Shown: piece by piece, positions 51,608-64,000 of the stretch
How positions within the stretch are numbered: the stretch's first letter is position 1
Layout of the letters: each line of letters begins with the position of its first letter
From: Candidatus Thorarchaeota archaeon
GTDB lineage: Archaea > Asgardarchaeota > Thorarchaeia > Thorarchaeales > Thorarchaeaceae
NCBI GenBank assembly: GCA_016933575.1
Contig: JAFGAR010000028.1
Span: 96,001-160,000, forward strand
Direction of reading: 5' to 3'
Length of the DNA: 64,000 nt
Translations under genes and position numbers: made by a program
The notes under the pieces: generated by a model
What the model saw: only the letters and a program-made list of their open reading frames with translations
What the model was told of the DNA's origin: nothing
The model's database searches: none

Positions 51608-53032
51608 TTGGGCGTAAATAGAGTACTTATTCGGAGGAGTAACAATTCATTGAAAAGTGAGGAACAACTTACACCCTCAGAGGATACCCCTGCTGCTTGG
51701 TTTCAAATGGGTTCAAGACTAGCTTCGGAAGGAAGACTAGTAGAAGCTGAACGAGCAATCAAGATTGCCGTTGACATGCAGGAGCAATTCCCGATTGCTT
51801 GGGCTATTCTCTGTGCAATACTACTCTCTCAGGGAAAGGAAACAGATGCAGAAAAAGCTGGGAAAAAGGCAATCTCTCAATGTTCAGAATTGAAAATGAC
51901 TTGGCCAATATTTCGCAGTATCATACTCAAGCATGCAATAAGAAAAGGAGCGAATTGGAAAATACCCAAGAGAATCTCAATTGATGAAGAAGGTTTATCA
52001 AAATGGGGTGAGACTCTGGCAATATTCTCAAAGGCAGTCACAGATGAAATTGAAACTGTCAAGGCTCCTGCAATTAAACCGGATATTGAAAAAGAAAAAC
52101 CAGAAGAAAAAACAATAGACACTCCCACTCCCCCTTCTGTCAAATTAGAGCGTGAGAAATTACCCTCGTATTCGTCAAGAACAGTTGAAGGCTTAACAAA
52201 GCTTATGGATCGAAAACTAAAAACTACGAAGAGCACTCAAGTAACATCTCCTGATGAGAGAGATGAGAAAACAAAACAATCTGAACTACCAACCTATTCG
52301 TCAAGAAAAGTAGTTGATGTTACAGAGAAATACTATGAAGAACTTGAGAGTCCAGAAGAGAGTAGCAGTAGTTCACCTGAATGGACACCAGTAACTCCGG
52401 GTCAATCACAGACATCTGAAGCATGGTACAGTGCGGCTGAAGTACATTTACGTCAAGGTCGTTTTGACCAATCCGAGCAATCTCTCTTGAGAGGTTTATC
52501 AATGGACCCCAAGAATGGAAAAGCTTGGCTCAGACTTGGGAGTCTTCTAATGAGGAGAAAGAACTATCAAGATGCTCAAGAAGCATTCGAAAAAGCAACT
52601 CAGTTCCTCAATAGAAATGTGGAGGCTCTGAGTGCTCTGGGAGATTGTTTGCAGGAACAACATAAATGGAGAGAGGCATTTCAAGTATTATCAAAGGCTG
52701 CAATAATCGAGCAAAATAGACCTGATATCTATCTCAAAATAGGTATCTCAGAATACAACCTGGGTCTATATCAGGATGCATCAAGAAGTTTTCTTAGAGT
52801 TTTGCGGATTGCACCTAGTCAAAAAGATGCAATGTTCTACTTAGCTCAATGTATGGAGAAGCAAGGTAATAGAAAACATGCACTCAGTCTTTACATCAAA
52901 CTGATGAATCTAGGCAATCTTTCTTCAGAGATGTATGAAAAGATGTCAGGTGCATTTGAGCGATTAGGTAGGCAGTATGAAGCTAGAGAGTCTAGAAGAC
53001 AAGCGGTCCTCGCAAGGCAAGCTGGAAAGTAA
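51608..53032 (+). CDS. TPR protein with N- and C-terminal TPR blocks and a disordered linker
   Basis: AWFQMG…A, AWLRLG, AMFYLAQC repeats; likely start 51650. Confidence 0.85.
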   Translation: MGVNRVLIRRSNNSLKSEEQLTPSEDTPAAWFQMGSRLASEGRLVEAERAIKIAVDMQEQFPIAWAILCAILLSQGKETDAEKAGKKAISQCSELKMTWPIFRSIILKHAIRKGANWKIPKRISIDEEGLSKWGETLAIFSKAVTDEIETVKAPAIKPDIEKEKPEEKTIDTPTPPSVKLEREKLPSYSSRTVEGLTKLMDRKLKTTKSTQVTSPDERDEKTKQSELPTYSSRKVVDVTEKYYEELESPEESSSSSPEWTPVTPGQSQTSEAWYSAAEVHLRQGRFDQSEQSLLRGLSMDPKNGKAWLRLGSLLMRRKNYQDAQEAFEKATQFLNRNVEALSALGDCLQEQHKWREAFQVLSKAAIIEQNRPDIYLKIGISEYNLGLYQDASRSFLRVLRIAPSQKDAMFYLAQCMEKQGNRKHALSLYIKLMNLGNLSSEMYEKMSGAFERLGRQYEARESRRQAVLARQAGK

Positions 53033-58122: not shown

Positions 58123-58764
58123 GTGATTACAATGACTTTACCATACACCGATAGCAAGGATATTGATACACTCCTTGGTAGAGCTGCCACTTTGATAGAG
58201 AAGAAGCTCTTCGATGAGGCACTTGTCACTCTTCAGCATGGCCTATCTTTGGATCCGGACAATCCGAAAACATGGGAGCGTATTGCTGCATGCAATCTTG
58301 AAATGGGAAAACCAAAGATGGCAATTGAGGCACTCAATAACTTATTACGAATCCAGCCAAATTCCTACTCAGGGTGGGCAGATAAAGGTCTATTACATTT
58401 ACTAATGAATGAAACATCAGAAGGTATTGGTGCTCTCAAAGAGAGTCTACGACTGAATCCAAGAAGAGCAAGAGACTGGGAACTTCTAGCAACTGTATTG
58501 ATTTCAGAAGAACGATGGGATGAAGCACTTGACGCCCTCGAAAAGACCCTAGATATGAATCCGAATTCAGCTGTCACATGGTACAATCTGGCTATTGTCT
58601 ATCTCTTTTTCGAAGAACTCAATTTGGCAGTACAAGCAGCAGAAGTCGCCTTCTCAATTGATCCATCCCTCAGAGAACTTGCAGAGGACTGGATAGACAT
58701 GGTCGATGAAGATGATACCGAAGATGAAGATGATACAGCACTCTATGATTTTGCGGCAAGTTGA
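58123..58764 (+). CDS. TPR repeat protein with acidic tail
   Basis: L-x-L-D/N-P turns with W-x-x-x-A/G repeats; tail DEDDTEDEDD. Confidence 0.88.
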   Translation: MITMTLPYTDSKDIDTLLGRAATLIEKKLFDEALVTLQHGLSLDPDNPKTWERIAACNLEMGKPKMAIEALNNLLRIQPNSYSGWADKGLLHLLMNETSEGIGALKESLRLNPRRARDWELLATVLISEERWDEALDALEKTLDMNPNSAVTWYNLAIVYLFFEELNLAVQAAEVAFSIDPSLRELAEDWIDMVDEDDTEDEDDTALYDFAAS

Positions 58765-58765
58765 T

Positions 58766-60652
58766 TCATTCTTCATCTAATGACGCAAGCTCACTCTCTA
58801 TTGATTTCACAAAATTGGATATTTTGAAACTCTTGGCTGCTTCAAGAGCTTGTTGAAGTGCAGATCGAATTCTCTGCAATTCTTTTTCCCTATCAGCAGG
58901 ATTTGTGATGTTTGTCAATTCTTCTCGTTTCTTAGGAAGCATACTGAGAAGACCTTCTATTGCATCTTCAGCTTCATCCCGGCTTGTAAATGTGCTCTCT
59001 TGACCAGGATCATATGATGACAATATTCGTTCAATCTGCTCATGGATTTTTTTGTATTCCTGCAAAGCACCCGAGAGAATCCTGTGTACTTCACCCTCAG
59101 TTTCAGCTTCCTCCAAAGCATTAGATATCTTCTCTATGGCTTTTTCTAAGTACTCCTTCCTATCTGAAAGATTACTCCGTTTTCGTTCAAGCCATCTCCA
59201 TTCATTGGAGATATTCCGGATCAAAGCTGATGCATGATTGATAGTTTCGCGGTATTGGTCATATCTGGCCATTGCCTCAGTGAAATCTGACTCAAGCGTG
59301 TCAATAACATGCGAGAGTTGAAAACTGAGCATATCACTTGCTTGAGCCTCAGCTAGAACACGACTCTCCTTAATTGCACGATTAGCGACTGCCCAGAGAC
59401 GTTCAACATCCTCGGGATTCATATCAGTGCGTTTTCTGACCTCCAATTCTTCAGATAATTGTGAGATGTCATGATTAATCGATTGTAGTTCTTGCATCTT
59501 TGCTTTTAGTAATGCTTTGCCCAAGCGCGTGTTCAAATCATTAGTCAGCATTTTACGCTCCTCAGGTACTTCCTGCAAAGCTTGTGTGTTATCAATCAGG
59601 ATCTGAAGGGCTTTTTCGAAATCTCCAACAGCTTCATGGAATAGTCCTTCTTGATATTGCTCATCTCCCTTCCTTTGCAATTCTAAGGCACTCTCAAGAA
59701 CATCATAAGGTGATGTCTTCAACAGACTATCTCTGAGTAACAATGGATAGGTTGAATGAAGGTCTAATGGATGACCAGATGCCATAATACGTAAAATATG
59801 AATACAATCAGCTGTTGCAACATAGATAAGGTCGCCTTCTGCAGTGAGATAATCGATCTTCTGATTGTCCAGAGCGATACTACCTAACTCATCTCCTTTC
59901 TTCAGGTCCCACAAAGTGACATTCCCAGGAGATACTGCTCCAAGGAGATAGTTCTCTGTTGTCCACATTGAAGTCACAACATTGGCATTCTTTACTTCAA
60001 ATGTTCGTACCAATTCCCATGCTGTTCGCTCATATACAGCAATTTCTCCAGAAGGTGTACCGATGAAGACAAACTCGGAGTTGCCACTGACAATACCACC
60101 CTTGCCTTTCTTATCAAGTCTTGCAAGTTCTGAAGGAGCAGCATCAGACTCTTTCAACCATACCTTTGGCTCTTCTTTTTTCGTACTAGTACAAATTATC
60201 TTTTCATCAGACCATATGCTAGTGAGATCAGATTTGTGAAGTTGCCAACTTGAAGTCTCATGGGTGTCTTTCTGAATTGATACAAGACGTCCATCTCGTG
60301 CTCCAACGAAGAAGAAATCGCCTTGAAGTCTAGAAGTGACAGCTTGATAGCTCAATTCGAACCATCCTATCATGCCCCATGTGTCTTTCTTCCAAACATA
60401 TACTCTCTTCTCACATGTAGCATAGACCTGTTCATCATCAACATCAACAGCAAGTAGGTCTGAACCTGTTTCGCCAAGCTCAGCAATAAGTTCCCAATTT
60501 GTTTTTGACCAGACACGAATTCGCTGATCACGACACGCGGCGTATAGAAAGTTCTCATCATAATCGATATCAAAAGCATCAACACTTAGCTCGGATACAG
60601 TCTCATGACTGATGAGATTTAAATCATTCTTCCCCGTCGATGAGTGGTCCAT
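58766..60652 (-). CDS. WD40-like beta-propeller plus MIT/TPR-like helices and coiled coil
   Basis: DQRIRVWSK, RVYVWKK, PKVWLK, NVTLWDLKKG blades in the first ~290 aa; then all-helical region. Confidence 0.8.
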   Translation of the reverse strand: MDHSSTGKNDLNLISHETVSELSVDAFDIDYDENFLYAACRDQRIRVWSKTNWELIAELGETGSDLLAVDVDDEQVYATCEKRVYVWKKDTWGMIGWFELSYQAVTSRLQGDFFFVGARDGRLVSIQKDTHETSSWQLHKSDLTSIWSDEKIICTSTKKEEPKVWLKESDAAPSELARLDKKGKGGIVSGNSEFVFIGTPSGEIAVYERTAWELVRTFEVKNANVVTSMWTTENYLLGAVSPGNVTLWDLKKGDELGSIALDNQKIDYLTAEGDLIYVATADCIHILRIMASGHPLDLHSTYPLLLRDSLLKTSPYDVLESALELQRKGDEQYQEGLFHEAVGDFEKALQILIDNTQALQEVPEERKMLTNDLNTRLGKALLKAKMQELQSINHDISQLSEELEVRKRTDMNPEDVERLWAVANRAIKESRVLAEAQASDMLSFQLSHVIDTLESDFTEAMARYDQYRETINHASALIRNISNEWRWLERKRSNLSDRKEYLEKAIEKISNALEEAETEGEVHRILSGALQEYKKIHEQIERILSSYDPGQESTFTSRDEAEDAIEGLLSMLPKKREELTNITNPADREKELQRIRSALQQALEAAKSFKISNFVKSIESELASLDEE

Positions 60653-60857
60653 AATATTACCACCGATACAATGGCTCTAATAACATGATTTAGGACAACT
60701 TATGGCAGTTTCCTTTTGCACAAAAACACCCTAACGTGCGATTTATCGAACTTAGAACGGGAGAATACATGACACAATCGTTGAAAAGGGAGAAACCACA
60801 CACAGAAAGCACTTAAGACATTTACAGGTGAAAGCCATATTAGATGGAGGTAGGTCT

Positions 60858-63548
60858 ATGGACAGTCACGGATGGAGACGCGAACTGGACAAGTTTGCGG
60901 AATTGAAAGGAATCCTAGTGTCAGTCAATCCGATACTAGAAGAACAGGCTAATCGCCAAGTCCGAAACCTCTATGATATCTTTGCTAGTTTAAGCAAGCT
61001 AGAGAATGATCTCACTAACGCGGGCTTGCTAAAGAAACGAAAAGTTCAGACTGAAGTTGATAAAACTACTAGTGAGCTTGAGGATGCATTCATGAGAGCC
61101 ACTCGTGACTTTGCTGAACTATTCAGGAAAGAGCATAGAGATGTAGTTGCGATTATACCCAAATTACAGGCAATTAAACCTGCAGAATCAAAGTCAATCT
61201 CGACTATTAGTTTTCCCGGGATTGGCGCAGGGGATATGAAAGACTTTGAGAAATTGATGGAATTTGCCAAGTCATATTCAAAGTTGTATCTGATTATTTT
61301 TGAAGATGTATCTCGAGAGGTCAAGTCTGTCTTGGATGAGAACAAGGCTACAGTAGACACCTATGAGAGACATGTCACCATCGACAAGAGTGAGGTATCA
61401 ACAACAGTATCTAATGAGGATGTCGCGGGTCTCACAATGCGAGACTTGATCATTCTGAATGACAAGCTCATGGAAGACCGGAAATACCTCAATAGTCGGA
61501 AAGATGAAGTCAGCAAGATGCTGGGTTCATCTTTGGTTAGTGATACTGAATCACTACAGGCATCCGTTGAAACAGCTGCAAGATTGGGACTGGACCTACC
61601 AATGGAATTCTCCCAGCAACTGCGAATCATAGCTAGAGATGCATCAAAAGCACAAGATCTGACCTCTCTGGTAAGTCTTGAGAACCAGCTCCACACCTCC
61701 AAGATAAAGATGGCAAACATGTTGAGAGATAAAATCATCAACATCAAGCATGAGGTCACTCAGAAGATTGTAGATGGGGGAATACCAACTACCTCAGAAG
61801 TCATTCCAAATCCACCATCTGTATCAGTCGAAGGGGAAGGTATTGCAGGATTATTATCAAGTTATCAGCGGATGGTAGAGTGGGAAGGTCAAGTAAGAAT
61901 CGCACTACGTGAAAGACTCTACGAGTTACTTGATGATGTTGAGAAAGCCTCTGAAGTCCCCGATGACACTGGTATTAAAGATGTCATCACAGTGAGACAA
62001 TACATAGCTGATTCAAAGAAGAGTCTGAAATCAGCAGACATTGATGAAATGGTGAGAATCTACATCAAAGTCAAAGCTATGGATGAAGAATACCGTAAAG
62101 CCATCATCGATAGTATACGAAATTACCTAACACGATTCAATGAATTGGCAACTTCAGCAGACCGCGTGCTAGATCATGCCCAGTTAAGCAAGAAGGCTCC
62201 CAAAGTCGAAGAGATGGAGGGTGGAATAACCTATCTACTTGAGTCACTCTCAACTTTGCGACAAGCTGTAGAGAGTGGAGTAGCAACATTTCGTGAAGCC
62301 TGTCAGCAAGAGATTGATGCTATTGTCCATGACCTTCAAACAGTCAAACCTGCTTATGCTGAAATCTTCATGCCAATTATTGTAGAACTTGATGAAGGAT
62401 CCAACAGAATTCAGGTCATGGATGACTTTACAGAGATCAAATCAGAGATGCGTTCTATCAAAGAAACAATGCTTGCAAAGGCAAAGGATTCTTTGGAGAA
62501 CCTGCGCTACAGATTAGGTGTAAAGATTCGACTCGCTGCTGCGAAGCTCATGGGTGCAGGTGTCGAGATACCTCCCGAAGTACAAGAGGCAATCAGTGAA
62601 TTGAATAGTATCGGTGTGGCTGCAGACAATGTTTTTGCCTTGCCTGCAATCGCAAGAAAGATGATTGAGATATATGAAAAGAAGATCTCGAACAATGTCA
62701 TTGATCAGCTAGAGTCGGAGGTCGATTCACTCATCACCTCCCTTGAGAAGGCAAAAAGCATTGGTGTCAAGGTTGAAAAGGAATTGAAGATGCTCACTTC
62801 TTTGAAGGAGAAACCTCCCACAGAGCTCGAAGAAGCCGCGGATGCCTTTGACAAACTAATGAACCTGACAACATCCCCACAGGTGCACAAGAAGATAAGA
62901 GACCGGGTTGATGAGGCCTATCTCCAGATCAAGAACGCAGTAGGGCTCTTCGAAGAACAGGGGATGTCTGAGTTCGTTGAAAGGTTAAAGATGCTAATTG
63001 ACCAAGTACCAGCTAAGCTGGAAAATGAGTCACCTCATGTTAATGATGCCCTTGATGTTTGCCTGACCCTAGCAAATATCCAGGAAGAGATGCTCAGTGT
63101 GATAAAGAACATCTCAAACATGAGTGGAGAAAGGCACGACCGTGAACTTAGAGAGAAAAGCCAATATTACTCAACAATTGAACGAGTTGTTGAAAACCAT
63201 CAAGACCAATTCAGCAAAATCGTATTCAACATAAACAAGATGAAAGAATTAGAATCAACACTTAATGTTCTATCTAATCTTGATGAAACAATCACATGTT
63301 TCCATGAACTTGAAAATATGAGGAAATCGTGGCTCGAGAAATCAATAGCAATGGATGACTGGCACAAGTCATTAAGAATGTTTATGACTGGTTTCAGTCC
63401 TGCAGCAAAGGCTGATGAACGAGACAAGTTCATTGAAGATGCAATACGAAAAATCAAAGAGACCTATAGTAGAGAAGACATCAGTTCTTATCTCAGCTGG
63501 GCGGTAAGGGAAAGCGCTCAAGCATTGGTCGGCGCAAGAAAAACATAG
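60858..63548 (+). CDS. large all-alpha/coiled-coil protein (~896 aa) of unknown function
   Basis: E/K/L/I-rich with no TM or enzyme motif; ATG 60858 after GGAGG. Confidence 0.85.
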   Translation: MDSHGWRRELDKFAELKGILVSVNPILEEQANRQVRNLYDIFASLSKLENDLTNAGLLKKRKVQTEVDKTTSELEDAFMRATRDFAELFRKEHRDVVAIIPKLQAIKPAESKSISTISFPGIGAGDMKDFEKLMEFAKSYSKLYLIIFEDVSREVKSVLDENKATVDTYERHVTIDKSEVSTTVSNEDVAGLTMRDLIILNDKLMEDRKYLNSRKDEVSKMLGSSLVSDTESLQASVETAARLGLDLPMEFSQQLRIIARDASKAQDLTSLVSLENQLHTSKIKMANMLRDKIINIKHEVTQKIVDGGIPTTSEVIPNPPSVSVEGEGIAGLLSSYQRMVEWEGQVRIALRERLYELLDDVEKASEVPDDTGIKDVITVRQYIADSKKSLKSADIDEMVRIYIKVKAMDEEYRKAIIDSIRNYLTRFNELATSADRVLDHAQLSKKAPKVEEMEGGITYLLESLSTLRQAVESGVATFREACQQEIDAIVHDLQTVKPAYAEIFMPIIVELDEGSNRIQVMDDFTEIKSEMRSIKETMLAKAKDSLENLRYRLGVKIRLAAAKLMGAGVEIPPEVQEAISELNSIGVAADNVFALPAIARKMIEIYEKKISNNVIDQLESEVDSLITSLEKAKSIGVKVEKELKMLTSLKEKPPTELEEAADAFDKLMNLTTSPQVHKKIRDRVDEAYLQIKNAVGLFEEQGMSEFVERLKMLIDQVPAKLENESPHVNDALDVCLTLANIQEEMLSVIKNISNMSGERHDRELREKSQYYSTIERVVENHQDQFSKIVFNINKMKELESTLNVLSNLDETITCFHELENMRKSWLEKSIAMDDWHKSLRMFMTGFSPAAKADERDKFIEDAIRKIKETYSREDISSYLSWAVRESAQALVGARKT

Positions 63549-63560
63549 GAGTAGCAGTCA

Positions 63561-64000
63561 ATGTTTGGAACCAATCCTGGTGTAGATAGTGATGACACAA
63601 CCAAAGCAGCTGAAGTTTTTGCAATCGGAATAGGAGAATGTGGGTCTAATATTGTAGGTTCATACCTCCAGACTAGCCGCGATAATAAACTGCCATCACG
63701 TGTTCGAGGATACCTCCTCATCAATACAGATAGAGCAGACCTCACCAAGGTCAGGCAAAAATACAAGATACCCAAGGAAAACACCCTCTTGTATGGCGCG
63801 TCTGAGATAGGTGTCGGTGGTCGTTTCATGGATGGGTATAATGCAATCATGGAATCCAAGGACATCATCTTCGACCAGTTGAGTAATCTAGGATTTGAGG
63901 GTGTATCGGGATTCTGTATCTTTACATCCTTGGGTGGTGGTACCGGATGCGGCGGAGCTCCTGCTTTAATTGAGCTTCTAAAACAGAGATTCCAAGAAGA
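63561..64000 (+). CDS. tubulin/FtsZ/CetZ-superfamily GTPase, N-terminal part (truncated by window end; not in ORF track)
   Basis: My translation: AIGIGECGSNIV (T1), LLINTDRADL (T2), GVGG (T3), SLGGGTGCGGAP (T4 signature at 63933-63953); frame open to the end. Confidence 0.93.
   Translation, partial: MFGTNPGVDSDDTTKAAEVFAIGIGECGSNIVGSYLQTSRDNKLPSRVRGYLLINTDRADLTKVRQKYKIPKENTLLYGASEIGVGGRFMDGYNAIMESKDIIFDQLSNLGFEGVSGFCIFTSLGGGTGCGGAPALIELLKQRFQE

Follow-up and report, generated by a model that had tools for sequence, protein, structure and literature searches.

Does a divergent tubulin-like GTPase gene that directly follows a gene for a large helical protein in an Asgard archaeon mark a system of its own, and if so, which genes belong to it? 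We addressed this question in a 64,000-nucleotide stretch of DNA from Candidatus Thorarchaeota archaeon (hereafter the window; assembly GCA_016933575.1, contig JAFGAR010000028.1, positions 96,001 to 160,000), which is part of a 296-kb contig of a Thorarchaeota-type genome that is 86% complete and rated 6.9% contaminated. An original prediction, made from the sequence alone, had proposed that the last genes of the window (58123-64000) form an undescribed system of a filament plus a scaffold or adaptor, with a possible role in membrane remodelling, encoded by a coiled-coil gene, the tubulin-like gene and a divergent WD40-helical gene. We found that the GTPase gene is the middle member of a three-gene operon conserved across Asgard classes. 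We conclude that this Asgard-specific operon is probably a tubulin-superfamily cytoskeletal module with a CetZ-like GTPase of the Asg.Tub family at its centre.

A three-gene operon and its conservation among Asgard archaea

The first gene of the operon encodes a large all-helical protein of 896 amino acids (60858-63548, + strand). We took ATG 60858 as its likeliest start, rather than the GTG at 60828 given by the open reading frame (ORF) lister (906 amino acids), because GGAGGT at 60846-60851 precedes this ATG and 896 amino acids is the length of most orthologues in Thorarchaeota (Thor). The gene stops at TAG (63546-63548), and the last base of this codon is the first base of a Shine-Dalgarno-like GGAG (63548-63551, + strand), placed 9 nucleotides (nt) before ATG 63561 of the GTPase gene. 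The helical gene ending at 63548, the tubulin-like start 12 nt further on and the GGAG lying over the stop codon are thus as originally predicted. The window holds the 5′ part of the GTPase gene (63561-64000, + strand); the full gene encodes 461 amino acids and runs past the window edge to window-equivalent position 64946 (L002:5561-6946).

Reading the downstream genes, a check suggested in the original prediction, revealed a third and equally conserved gene that completes the operon. It encodes a 356-amino-acid helical protein belonging to no family and lies outside the window on the + strand (window-equivalent 64961-66031; L002:6961-8031). Since the contig was read beyond the window edge, we define the unit as three genes, encoding the large helical partner, the GTPase and the small helical partner. 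The spacer between the second and the third gene measures 14 nt, and the arrangement before the third gene is that seen before the GTPase gene: TAA is followed by GGAG and, after 9 nt, by TTG. The promoter or promoters presumably lie in the divergent intergenic region upstream (60653-60857), which spans 205 nt from the start of the WD40-helical gene to ATG 60858; the predicted length was about 200 nt.

The comparison drew on 80 loci of species-representative genomes, to which metagenome assemblies added four and whole genomes several more; the counts take only loci with enough flanking DNA. In Thor-like loci, the large-partner gene adjoins the GTPase gene upstream in 49 of 49 and the small-partner gene adjoins it downstream in 60 of 60. 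Non-Thor loci, which come from Hermod, Borr, Sif, three Heimdall-side lineages and ‘Asgardarchaeia’, yielded the large partner in 16 of 17 and the small partner in 19 of 21 by tblastn; clustering or gene calls supplied those that this search had missed. Most spacers across the loci do not exceed 30 nt. When all flanking ORFs were clustered, the families common to every lineage were only the three of the operon. The synteny test set for the original prediction was therefore strongly positive, with the helical and tubulin-like genes staying linked across classes, and their arrangement is not due to chance, because they are adjacent in every related locus with flanking DNA.

Between classes, the GTPase retains 50–63% identity and both partners 18–30%. 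Gene order, orientation and short spacers have been kept while the partners fell to this level and other neighbours changed, which makes it hardly credible that functionally unrelated genes flank the GTPase gene by accident. The same conclusion follows from the restriction of both partner families to these loci and from the co-duplication of the large partner with the GTPase.

This co-duplication was found in one Heimdall-side genus, which carries a second cassette where a paralogous GTPase gene is preceded by a gene for a 1140-amino-acid protein that clearly belongs to the large-partner family (hhalign E 5.9e-87). We consider the joint duplication of the GTPase and the large partner the strongest genomic sign of joint function. 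The second cassette occurs in some genomes of the genus (L090:7920-12680; also L092, L093 and L094), has no small partner, and follows a 311-amino-acid gene of unknown family. This gene and a 303-amino-acid gene also lying by the second cassette were ruled out as relatives of the small partner (hhalign probability <1%).

Across the phylum, the GTPase was found in 124 of 400 genomes. It is near-universal in some families (74 of 85, 20 of 22, 15 of 19, 5 of 5 and 4 of 4 genomes).

The GTPase and its two helical partners

The GTPase matches the Tubulin family of Pfam (PF00091) over residues 18-202, with 74.5 bits against a cut-off of 33 (E 1.8e-20). Pfam likewise upheld the other domain calls of the original prediction, i.e. 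a TPR protein, a beta-propeller and a helical protein without a family. The best solved relatives of the GTPase are CetZ1, a Methanosaeta CetZ and CetZ2, with alignment limited to about 145 residues of the N-terminal domain (structures 4b46, 4b45 and 3zid; E 6.7e-11 from the single sequence and 3.2e-11 from the family profile). Searched against the PDB, the family profile ranked CetZ1 (3.2e-11) ahead of AtubA (1.6e-5), OdinTubulin (6.5e-5) and gamma-tubulin (1.1e-4), so this comparison revealed no closer similarity to eukaryote-type tubulins (AtubA/B, OdinTubulin, BtubA/B) than to CetZ. The Pfam search gave no match to CetZ_C (PF21011) at E up to 0.1, Tubulin_2 (PF13809) reached 20.9 bits, below its cut-off of 27, and the FtsZ equivalog TIGR00065 reached 35.9 bits, far under its cut-off of 295.2. 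Two canonical FtsZ genes are present elsewhere in the same genome, scoring 162 and 152 bits with PF00091.

In language-model space, the nearest neighbours of the GTPase are CetZ clusters (0.94 and 0.93), with TubZ-like clusters just under them (0.92). In operons of the TubZ type, small or helical partners are likewise encoded beside a divergent tubulin-like GTPase. TubZ-TubR (type III) segregation systems lie on a plasmid or phage and have a gene for a small winged-helix DNA-binding adaptor next to the GTPase gene. We considered whether the operon segregates DNA in the manner of TubZ-TubR(-TubY), with its helical partners connecting the filament to DNA. We judge this very improbable: the cassette is chromosomal or on long contigs, mostly single-copy and set among housekeeping genes, its partners are acidic (isoelectric point 5.2) with no match to DNA-binding families, and the solved-structure searches rank CetZ first, TubZ not being among the matches listed.

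The nucleotide-binding and catalytic motifs were compared in an alignment of 21 diverse members of the GTPase family. The T1 loop reads GIGECGSN, with G23, G25, E26, G28 and N30 invariant, so that GxGExGxN is kept throughout. In the T4 loop, GGGTGCGG, G125-G132 are invariant, and the family has Cys at the Ser/Thr position of the signature GGGTG[ST]G. The T7/H8 motif, TTDLADY, is followed by a VVVP strand, and its residues T283, D284 and D287 are invariant. The hydrolysis-activating residues of T7/H8 are N-x-D-x-x-D in FtsZ and N-x-D-x-x-E in alpha-tubulin. In our reading, the T283-D284-x-x-D287 layout appears to match both, as a comparison of motifs and not a superposition (MAFFT misplaced the FtsZ T7). 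The T1, T4 and T7/H8 motifs would thus be those expected of a polymerising, hydrolysing subunit. The family is set apart from CetZ by its T1 sequence, by a T7 loop that is long, by an acidic insert that varies and by a distinct C-terminal extension of about 60 residues, which is highly conserved.

About 150 homologues of the GTPase (49–93% identical) were collected from Thor, Hermod, Heimdall, Hodarchaeales and ‘Asgardarchaeia’ bins; they are annotated as hypothetical, except one named ‘CetZ’. Judged by its alignment blocks, this family was named ‘Asg.Tub’ in 2023 by Santana-Molina et al., who defined the group from four sequences (OLS30664.1, KXH77455.1, OLS26264.1 and PWI48967.1; PMC9871819). 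The published C-terminal alignment of Thor AB_25, Thor SMTZ1-83, Heimdall LC_3 and B3-JM-08 (supplementary file 35, PMC9871819) carries the same blocks as our 21-member alignment, PTTDLADY, LPKIPE and HSG.S.LKQ.WF.RSKG, and the AB_25 and LC_3 assemblies correspond to our loci L019 and L085. Asg.Tub was placed between CetZ and tubulins, nearer CetZ and outside canonical CetZ, in an unstable position, and coiled-coil genes of unknown function were noted near it (PMC9871819). The GTPase family is thus not entirely undescribed, and on this point the original prediction is not upheld: the family had been named, although it has never been characterised. Our literature searches found no paper describing the three-gene operon; as far as the literature was searched, no account exists of the invariant triad, of its two families of orphan partners, of its wide and patchy occurrence or of the paralogous cassette. 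In one ‘Asgardarchaeia’ locus (L084:8001-9323), the GTPase is called as 389 amino acids with a separate 42-amino-acid ORF, seemingly cutting off the conserved C-terminal 60 residues or so, possibly through a frameshift or an assembly error.

No family in Pfam or NCBIfam matched the large partner. A search of its profile against 1.84 billion representative proteins returned 47 matches, all of them orthologues or fragments, and the Atlas search returned its own Thor cluster only. Both partner families are Asgard-restricted orphans found only at Asg.Tub loci. The AlphaFold2 model of the large partner, confident locally and not globally (predicted local distance difference test [pLDDT] 86, predicted template modelling score 0.40), consists of helices only, each of 15–45 residues, and would fit an elongated chain of long-helix bundles. 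The helical nature of the predicted ‘coiled-coil gene’ was thus borne out, while a classical two-stranded coiled coil was not what the model gave. Segments of about 115 residues are weakly similar to one another (hhalign probability 83% and 60%). Conservation is highest in the C-terminal 140 residues or so, where W835, H836 and Y878 are invariant. Neither the large partner nor the GTPase has a 19-residue window with a clear transmembrane score, and all three operon proteins are acidic and without clear transmembrane segments. On one Heimdall chromosome (L082:6963-9965), the large partner appears as a 659-amino-acid ORF preceded by a 199-amino-acid ORF on the same strand, which may reflect a frameshift or a mis-called start.

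Foldseek gave no match to the large partner at E ≤0.001. The best VIA fold match was a designed helix bundle at Z 11.5, and Z below about 13 corresponds to helical-bundle background. The rows for PRC1, EzrA, talin, the dynein tail and gamma-TuRC all lay within this background. Spectrin-repeat rods are built of tandem three-helix bundles of about 106 amino acids, and the rods compared with the model were PRC1 (Z 7.4, root-mean-square deviation 17 Å) and EzrA (Z 6.2, 24 Å).

Co-folding of the GTPase with the large helical protein, another check suggested in the original prediction, was performed with the GTPase as the scored partner against residues 560-896 of this protein and 148-356 of the small partner. 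The verdict was ‘weak support’, i.e. a weak pass for the GTPase with the C-terminal third of the large partner, at a score of 0.56 against 0.00 for the best of three controls. In the calibration, 58 of 80 solved complexes passed at this mark, as did 2 of 110 mismatched pairs; the passes at 0.60 or less comprised only 7 of the 80 complexes and both mismatches. With custom alignments and three chains, this calibration holds roughly only. The runs agreed in at least 88% of contacts, with a partner pLDDT of at least 79. Replacing the large-partner chain alone brought the score to 0.00, so the modelled contact would be made by this chain and not by the C-terminal domain of the small partner. Taken with the prior that synteny and co-duplication provide, the co-fold lends modest support to the prediction that the large partner binds the GTPase.

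Could the GTPase form no cytomotive filament at all and instead join the large partner in a soluble or capping complex of fixed stoichiometry, like gamma-tubulin with GCP proteins or tubulin with its large helical cofactors? Gamma-tubulin is bound by the C-terminal domain of GCP proteins, which are all-helical, about 900 amino acids long and characterised by N- and C-terminal helical domains (PF17681 and PF04130). The large partner also has about 900 amino acids, is all-helical and is most conserved at its C-terminus, the region on which the weak co-fold pass depends, and the gene spacing suggests near-equimolar synthesis. GCP_C_terminal (PF04130) matched one of 28 large-partner members (E 0.0032, among 116 other weak families), and gamma-TuRC chains were among the weak structural rows (Foldseek E 0.17; Z 5.8 over 81 residues). 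We still find such a complex unlikely. The GCP and gamma-TuRC matches are at noise level for helical proteins, and the GCP_C_terminal match, the source of which was not found among 18 members rechecked, was treated as such; in addition, the invariant acidic residues of T7 favour a longitudinal, filament-type contact between GTPase subunits.

The small partner has no credible relatives in the PDB, Pfam, NCBIfam or the Atlas and is an Asgard-only orphan. In its model (pLDDT 80), residues 103-147 form a disordered linker between a hydrophobic three-helix bundle at the N-terminus and a well-conserved helical domain at the C-terminus, which is modelled at pLDDT >90 and carries the conserved motifs EAP.ARLLQ, F.WG...LEKR and a terminal MKP. 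The first helix is the most hydrophobic stretch of the operon, with Kyte-Doolittle values of 1.2–1.9 across orthologues, borderline for a membrane segment, and is modelled within the soluble bundle. Fold matches from Foldseek against the PDB, the ESM Atlas and a wide VIA-align search were set aside as generic three-helix bundles that covered the N-terminal part only.

Proposed mechanism and neighbouring genes

The order of the genes, their spacing and conservation, the restriction of the families and the co-duplication are observed; polymerisation, binding and a cellular role of the module are what we infer. The GTPase would most likely form GTP-dependent protofilaments; in FtsZ and tubulin, the acidic T7/H8 residues complete the active site of the neighbouring subunit. 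The conserved C-terminal region of the large partner would probably bind the GTPase, as the weak co-fold pass suggests, and this partner is likely to act as a stoichiometric scaffold, bundler or adaptor. The layout of the small partner, in which a linker joins a bundle to a domain, suggests a tether or regulator. Because two canonical FtsZ genes are found elsewhere in the genome, a role in cell shape or internal organisation is likelier than one in division. The idea of a filament with a scaffold or adaptor is thereby supported for the tightly spaced helical and GTPase genes, which are conserved across classes, and not for the WD40 and TPR genes, which are not part of the core. Nothing supports membrane remodelling: the proteins have no clear transmembrane segments, and there are no ESCRT, vWA or OmpA partners.

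Several observations weigh against a filament-forming module of this kind. In the 400-genome survey, the GTPase was found in 0 of 135 genomes of the largest family sampled and in 0 of 31 and 0 of 14 genomes of two others; with several large families lacking it, the module is not essential to Asgard biology generally. Genome incompleteness may bear on single absences but not on these family tallies. The C-terminal half of the GTPase was aligned to known tubulins by no sequence method, and co-transcription of the three genes is deduced from their spacing. In the score range of our co-fold, the tool rates passes as more often wrong than right unless the guess is already likely. The small partner is unsupported as a direct binder of the GTPase, since the score was 0.00 when it was kept and the large chain was replaced. 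Finally, as the fold matches of the large partner all belong to the helical background, the term scaffold reflects its shape.

A much more specific picture would be a tubulin machine born in Asgard archaea with its own dedicated binding proteins, in which the large partner grips the GTPase by its C-terminal domain and templates, caps or bundles the polymer while the small protein tethers the assembly to some other structure of the cell. We regard this as a long shot.

The WD40-helical gene (58766-60652, − strand) encodes 628 amino acids, with a propeller at approximately residues 15-290 and a C-terminal half that is helical or coiled-coil. More than 15 beta-propeller families match residues 15-290 (best E 2.3e-9); ANAPC4_WD40 scores 23.2 bits on the protein (cut-off 22.9), and most other propeller families stay under their whole-domain cut-offs. 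The gene converges, as predicted, on a TPR gene (58123-58764, + strand; 213 amino acids, TPR_1 E 1.4e-21), with the two stops 1 nt apart.

The original prediction had counted the WD40-helical gene among the parts of the locus. If the system is larger in Thorarchaeota, the product of this gene would belong to the working parts, perhaps together with the TPR protein, and operon and WD40 gene would be driven from one bidirectional promoter. The WD40-helical protein might then be a propeller-plus-helix adaptor between the filament and another structure, as originally proposed. This is possible, although we consider it clearly less probable than the three-gene module. The WD40 gene is adjacent and divergent in 39 of 44 Thor loci, and most Thor genomes with this gene carry it a few kb from the GTPase gene on one contig; the TPR gene stays beside the operon, directly upstream of the large-partner gene, even in the three Thor loci that keep the cassette without the WD40 gene (L008, L054 and L058). 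Outside Thor, the WD40 gene is beside the cassette in 0 of 16 loci, and with this query, other Asgard families give only generic WD40 matches. The protein is present in 67 of 85 genomes of the family to which the window belongs and virtually absent from the rest of the phylum, and conservation within one family could be plain inherited gene order. Two Thor genera kept the GTPase and have no WD40 gene (g10, 0 of 4 genomes vs 3 of 4 with the GTPase; g15, 0 of 3 vs 3 of 3). The TPR gene, too, neighbours the cassette in Thor only. We conclude that the WD40 and TPR genes are lineage-specific neighbours and not part of the conserved core; their products may be accessories in Thorarchaeota. A second, partial WD40 copy (61% identical, residues 13-147) at a contig edge of the same assembly (G000:C40:760-1164) may be a paralogue or stem from strain heterogeneity or contamination.

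Upstream of the operon, two TPR-repeat proteins are encoded within 7 kb (window 51608-53032 and 58123-58764). Between their genes lie a Sir2-family, an enoyl-CoA hydratase, an amino-acid kinase and a RidA/L-PSP gene, an ordinary metabolic context.

Downstream, the small-partner gene is followed by an 88-nt AT-rich gap and then by an ADP-forming acyl-CoA-synthetase-like gene, beyond which a type-2 IPP isomerase gene lies on the opposite strand. The acyl-CoA-synthetase-like gene resembles the alpha subunit (L002:8120-9529, window-equivalent 66120-67529; CoA_binding_2 and Succ_CoA_lig), and the 88-nt gap holds a TATA-like sequence for it. Such a gene stands 3′ of the operon in nearly all Thor loci and also follows it in Borr and Sif loci (L066, L069, L070 and L073; 32–36% identity). 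It is probably inherited gene order and not a part of the system.

In four Heimdall-side lineages, small GTPase genes were observed at no more than 8 kb from the cassette (L083:102-1037, L084:4532-5113, L085:1-468 and L086:749-1917), and in four genomes of one genus, a 739-amino-acid protein with a Gtr1/RagA-type GTPase domain is encoded convergently to the paralogous cassette (L090:4341-7869). We rejected small GTPases as a conserved fourth component: they belong to mixed subfamilies (Arf, Ras/Rab-like and Gtr1/RagA), the cassettes of Thor, Hermod and Borr have none nearby, and genes of this kind are frequent, with 57 in one genome of 4.9 Mb. Their proximity is suggestive at most.

Significance and comparison with known systems

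Earlier attention to the Asgard cytoskeleton has centred on actin, FtsZ1, FtsZ2 and true tubulins (OdinTubulin and AtubAB). The operon adds a third tubulin-superfamily protein that is more conserved across Asgard classes than its neighbours and has two dedicated orphan partners, which suggests that the prokaryotes most closely related to eukaryotes possess a cytoskeletal module still uncharacterised. In archaea of the Thor, Hermod, Borr and Heimdall types, the module may explain features of how cells are shaped or organised internally. Lokiarchaeal models cannot show these features, because the largest Asgard family sampled is without the GTPase. As a defined three-protein system, it is open to co-expression and imaging and could show how partners of tubulin-like filaments arise. 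If the more specific picture of a tubulin machine, our long shot, is true, a dedicated tubulin-partner complex would predate eukaryotes and be biochemically accessible, as a functional forerunner or an analogue of eukaryotic tubulin-binding scaffolds, for instance GCPs or microtubule-associated proteins.

Among known systems, FtsZl-1 (Makarova and Koonin 2010, PMC2875224) is similar in that a divergent FtsZ/tubulin-superfamily GTPase lies in a conserved multi-gene context, and it was the precedent behind the membrane-remodelling idea of the original prediction. There, the GTPase is accompanied by a protein with a vWA domain, by a second, distinct GTPase and by proteins of the OmpA family (PMC2875224). 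The neighbours described here have none of these domains, and the Tubulin_2 score of our GTPase, as noted, is below the cut-off.

FtsZ with EzrA offers a working analogy, a filament joined by a spectrin-like helical-repeat rod, with no sequence or convincing structural kinship. The small partner recalls the layout of ZipA and SepF, where a flexible linker separates a hydrophobic element at the N-terminus from the binding domain at the C-terminus. The proteins of the operon have no clear transmembrane segment, and the canonical FtsZ genes lie elsewhere.

The AtubA/B genes of Asgard archaea also form a tight operon in which the downstream ribosome-binding site overlaps the preceding stop. In Prosthecobacter, BtubC is a helical-repeat partner that binds and stabilises the BtubA/B filament. 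BtubA/B and AtubA/B are heterodimers close to eukaryotic tubulin, whereas each cassette here has one GTPase gene, nearer CetZ, and the TPR-type BtubC is unrelated to the partners.

CetZ, a tubulin-like protein of archaeal cell shape, is the best structure match and the nearest language-model cluster, and the GTPase resembles it as a third member of the tubulin superfamily beside FtsZ1 and FtsZ2. The two differ in that only the N-terminal 145 residues or so align and CetZ_C was not detected in the Asg.Tub GTPase at E up to 0.1. To our knowledge, CetZ genes have not been described in an operon with two dedicated helical partners.

The closest comparison is Asg.Tub itself, which is the same protein family. 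With its four sequences, the 2023 study referred to the contexts of CetZ-like groups as unknown and unrelated genes (PMC9871819). Our results extend it by the three-gene operon, the two orphan partners, the spread to Hermod, Borr, Sif and further Heimdall-side lineages, and the paralogous cassette.

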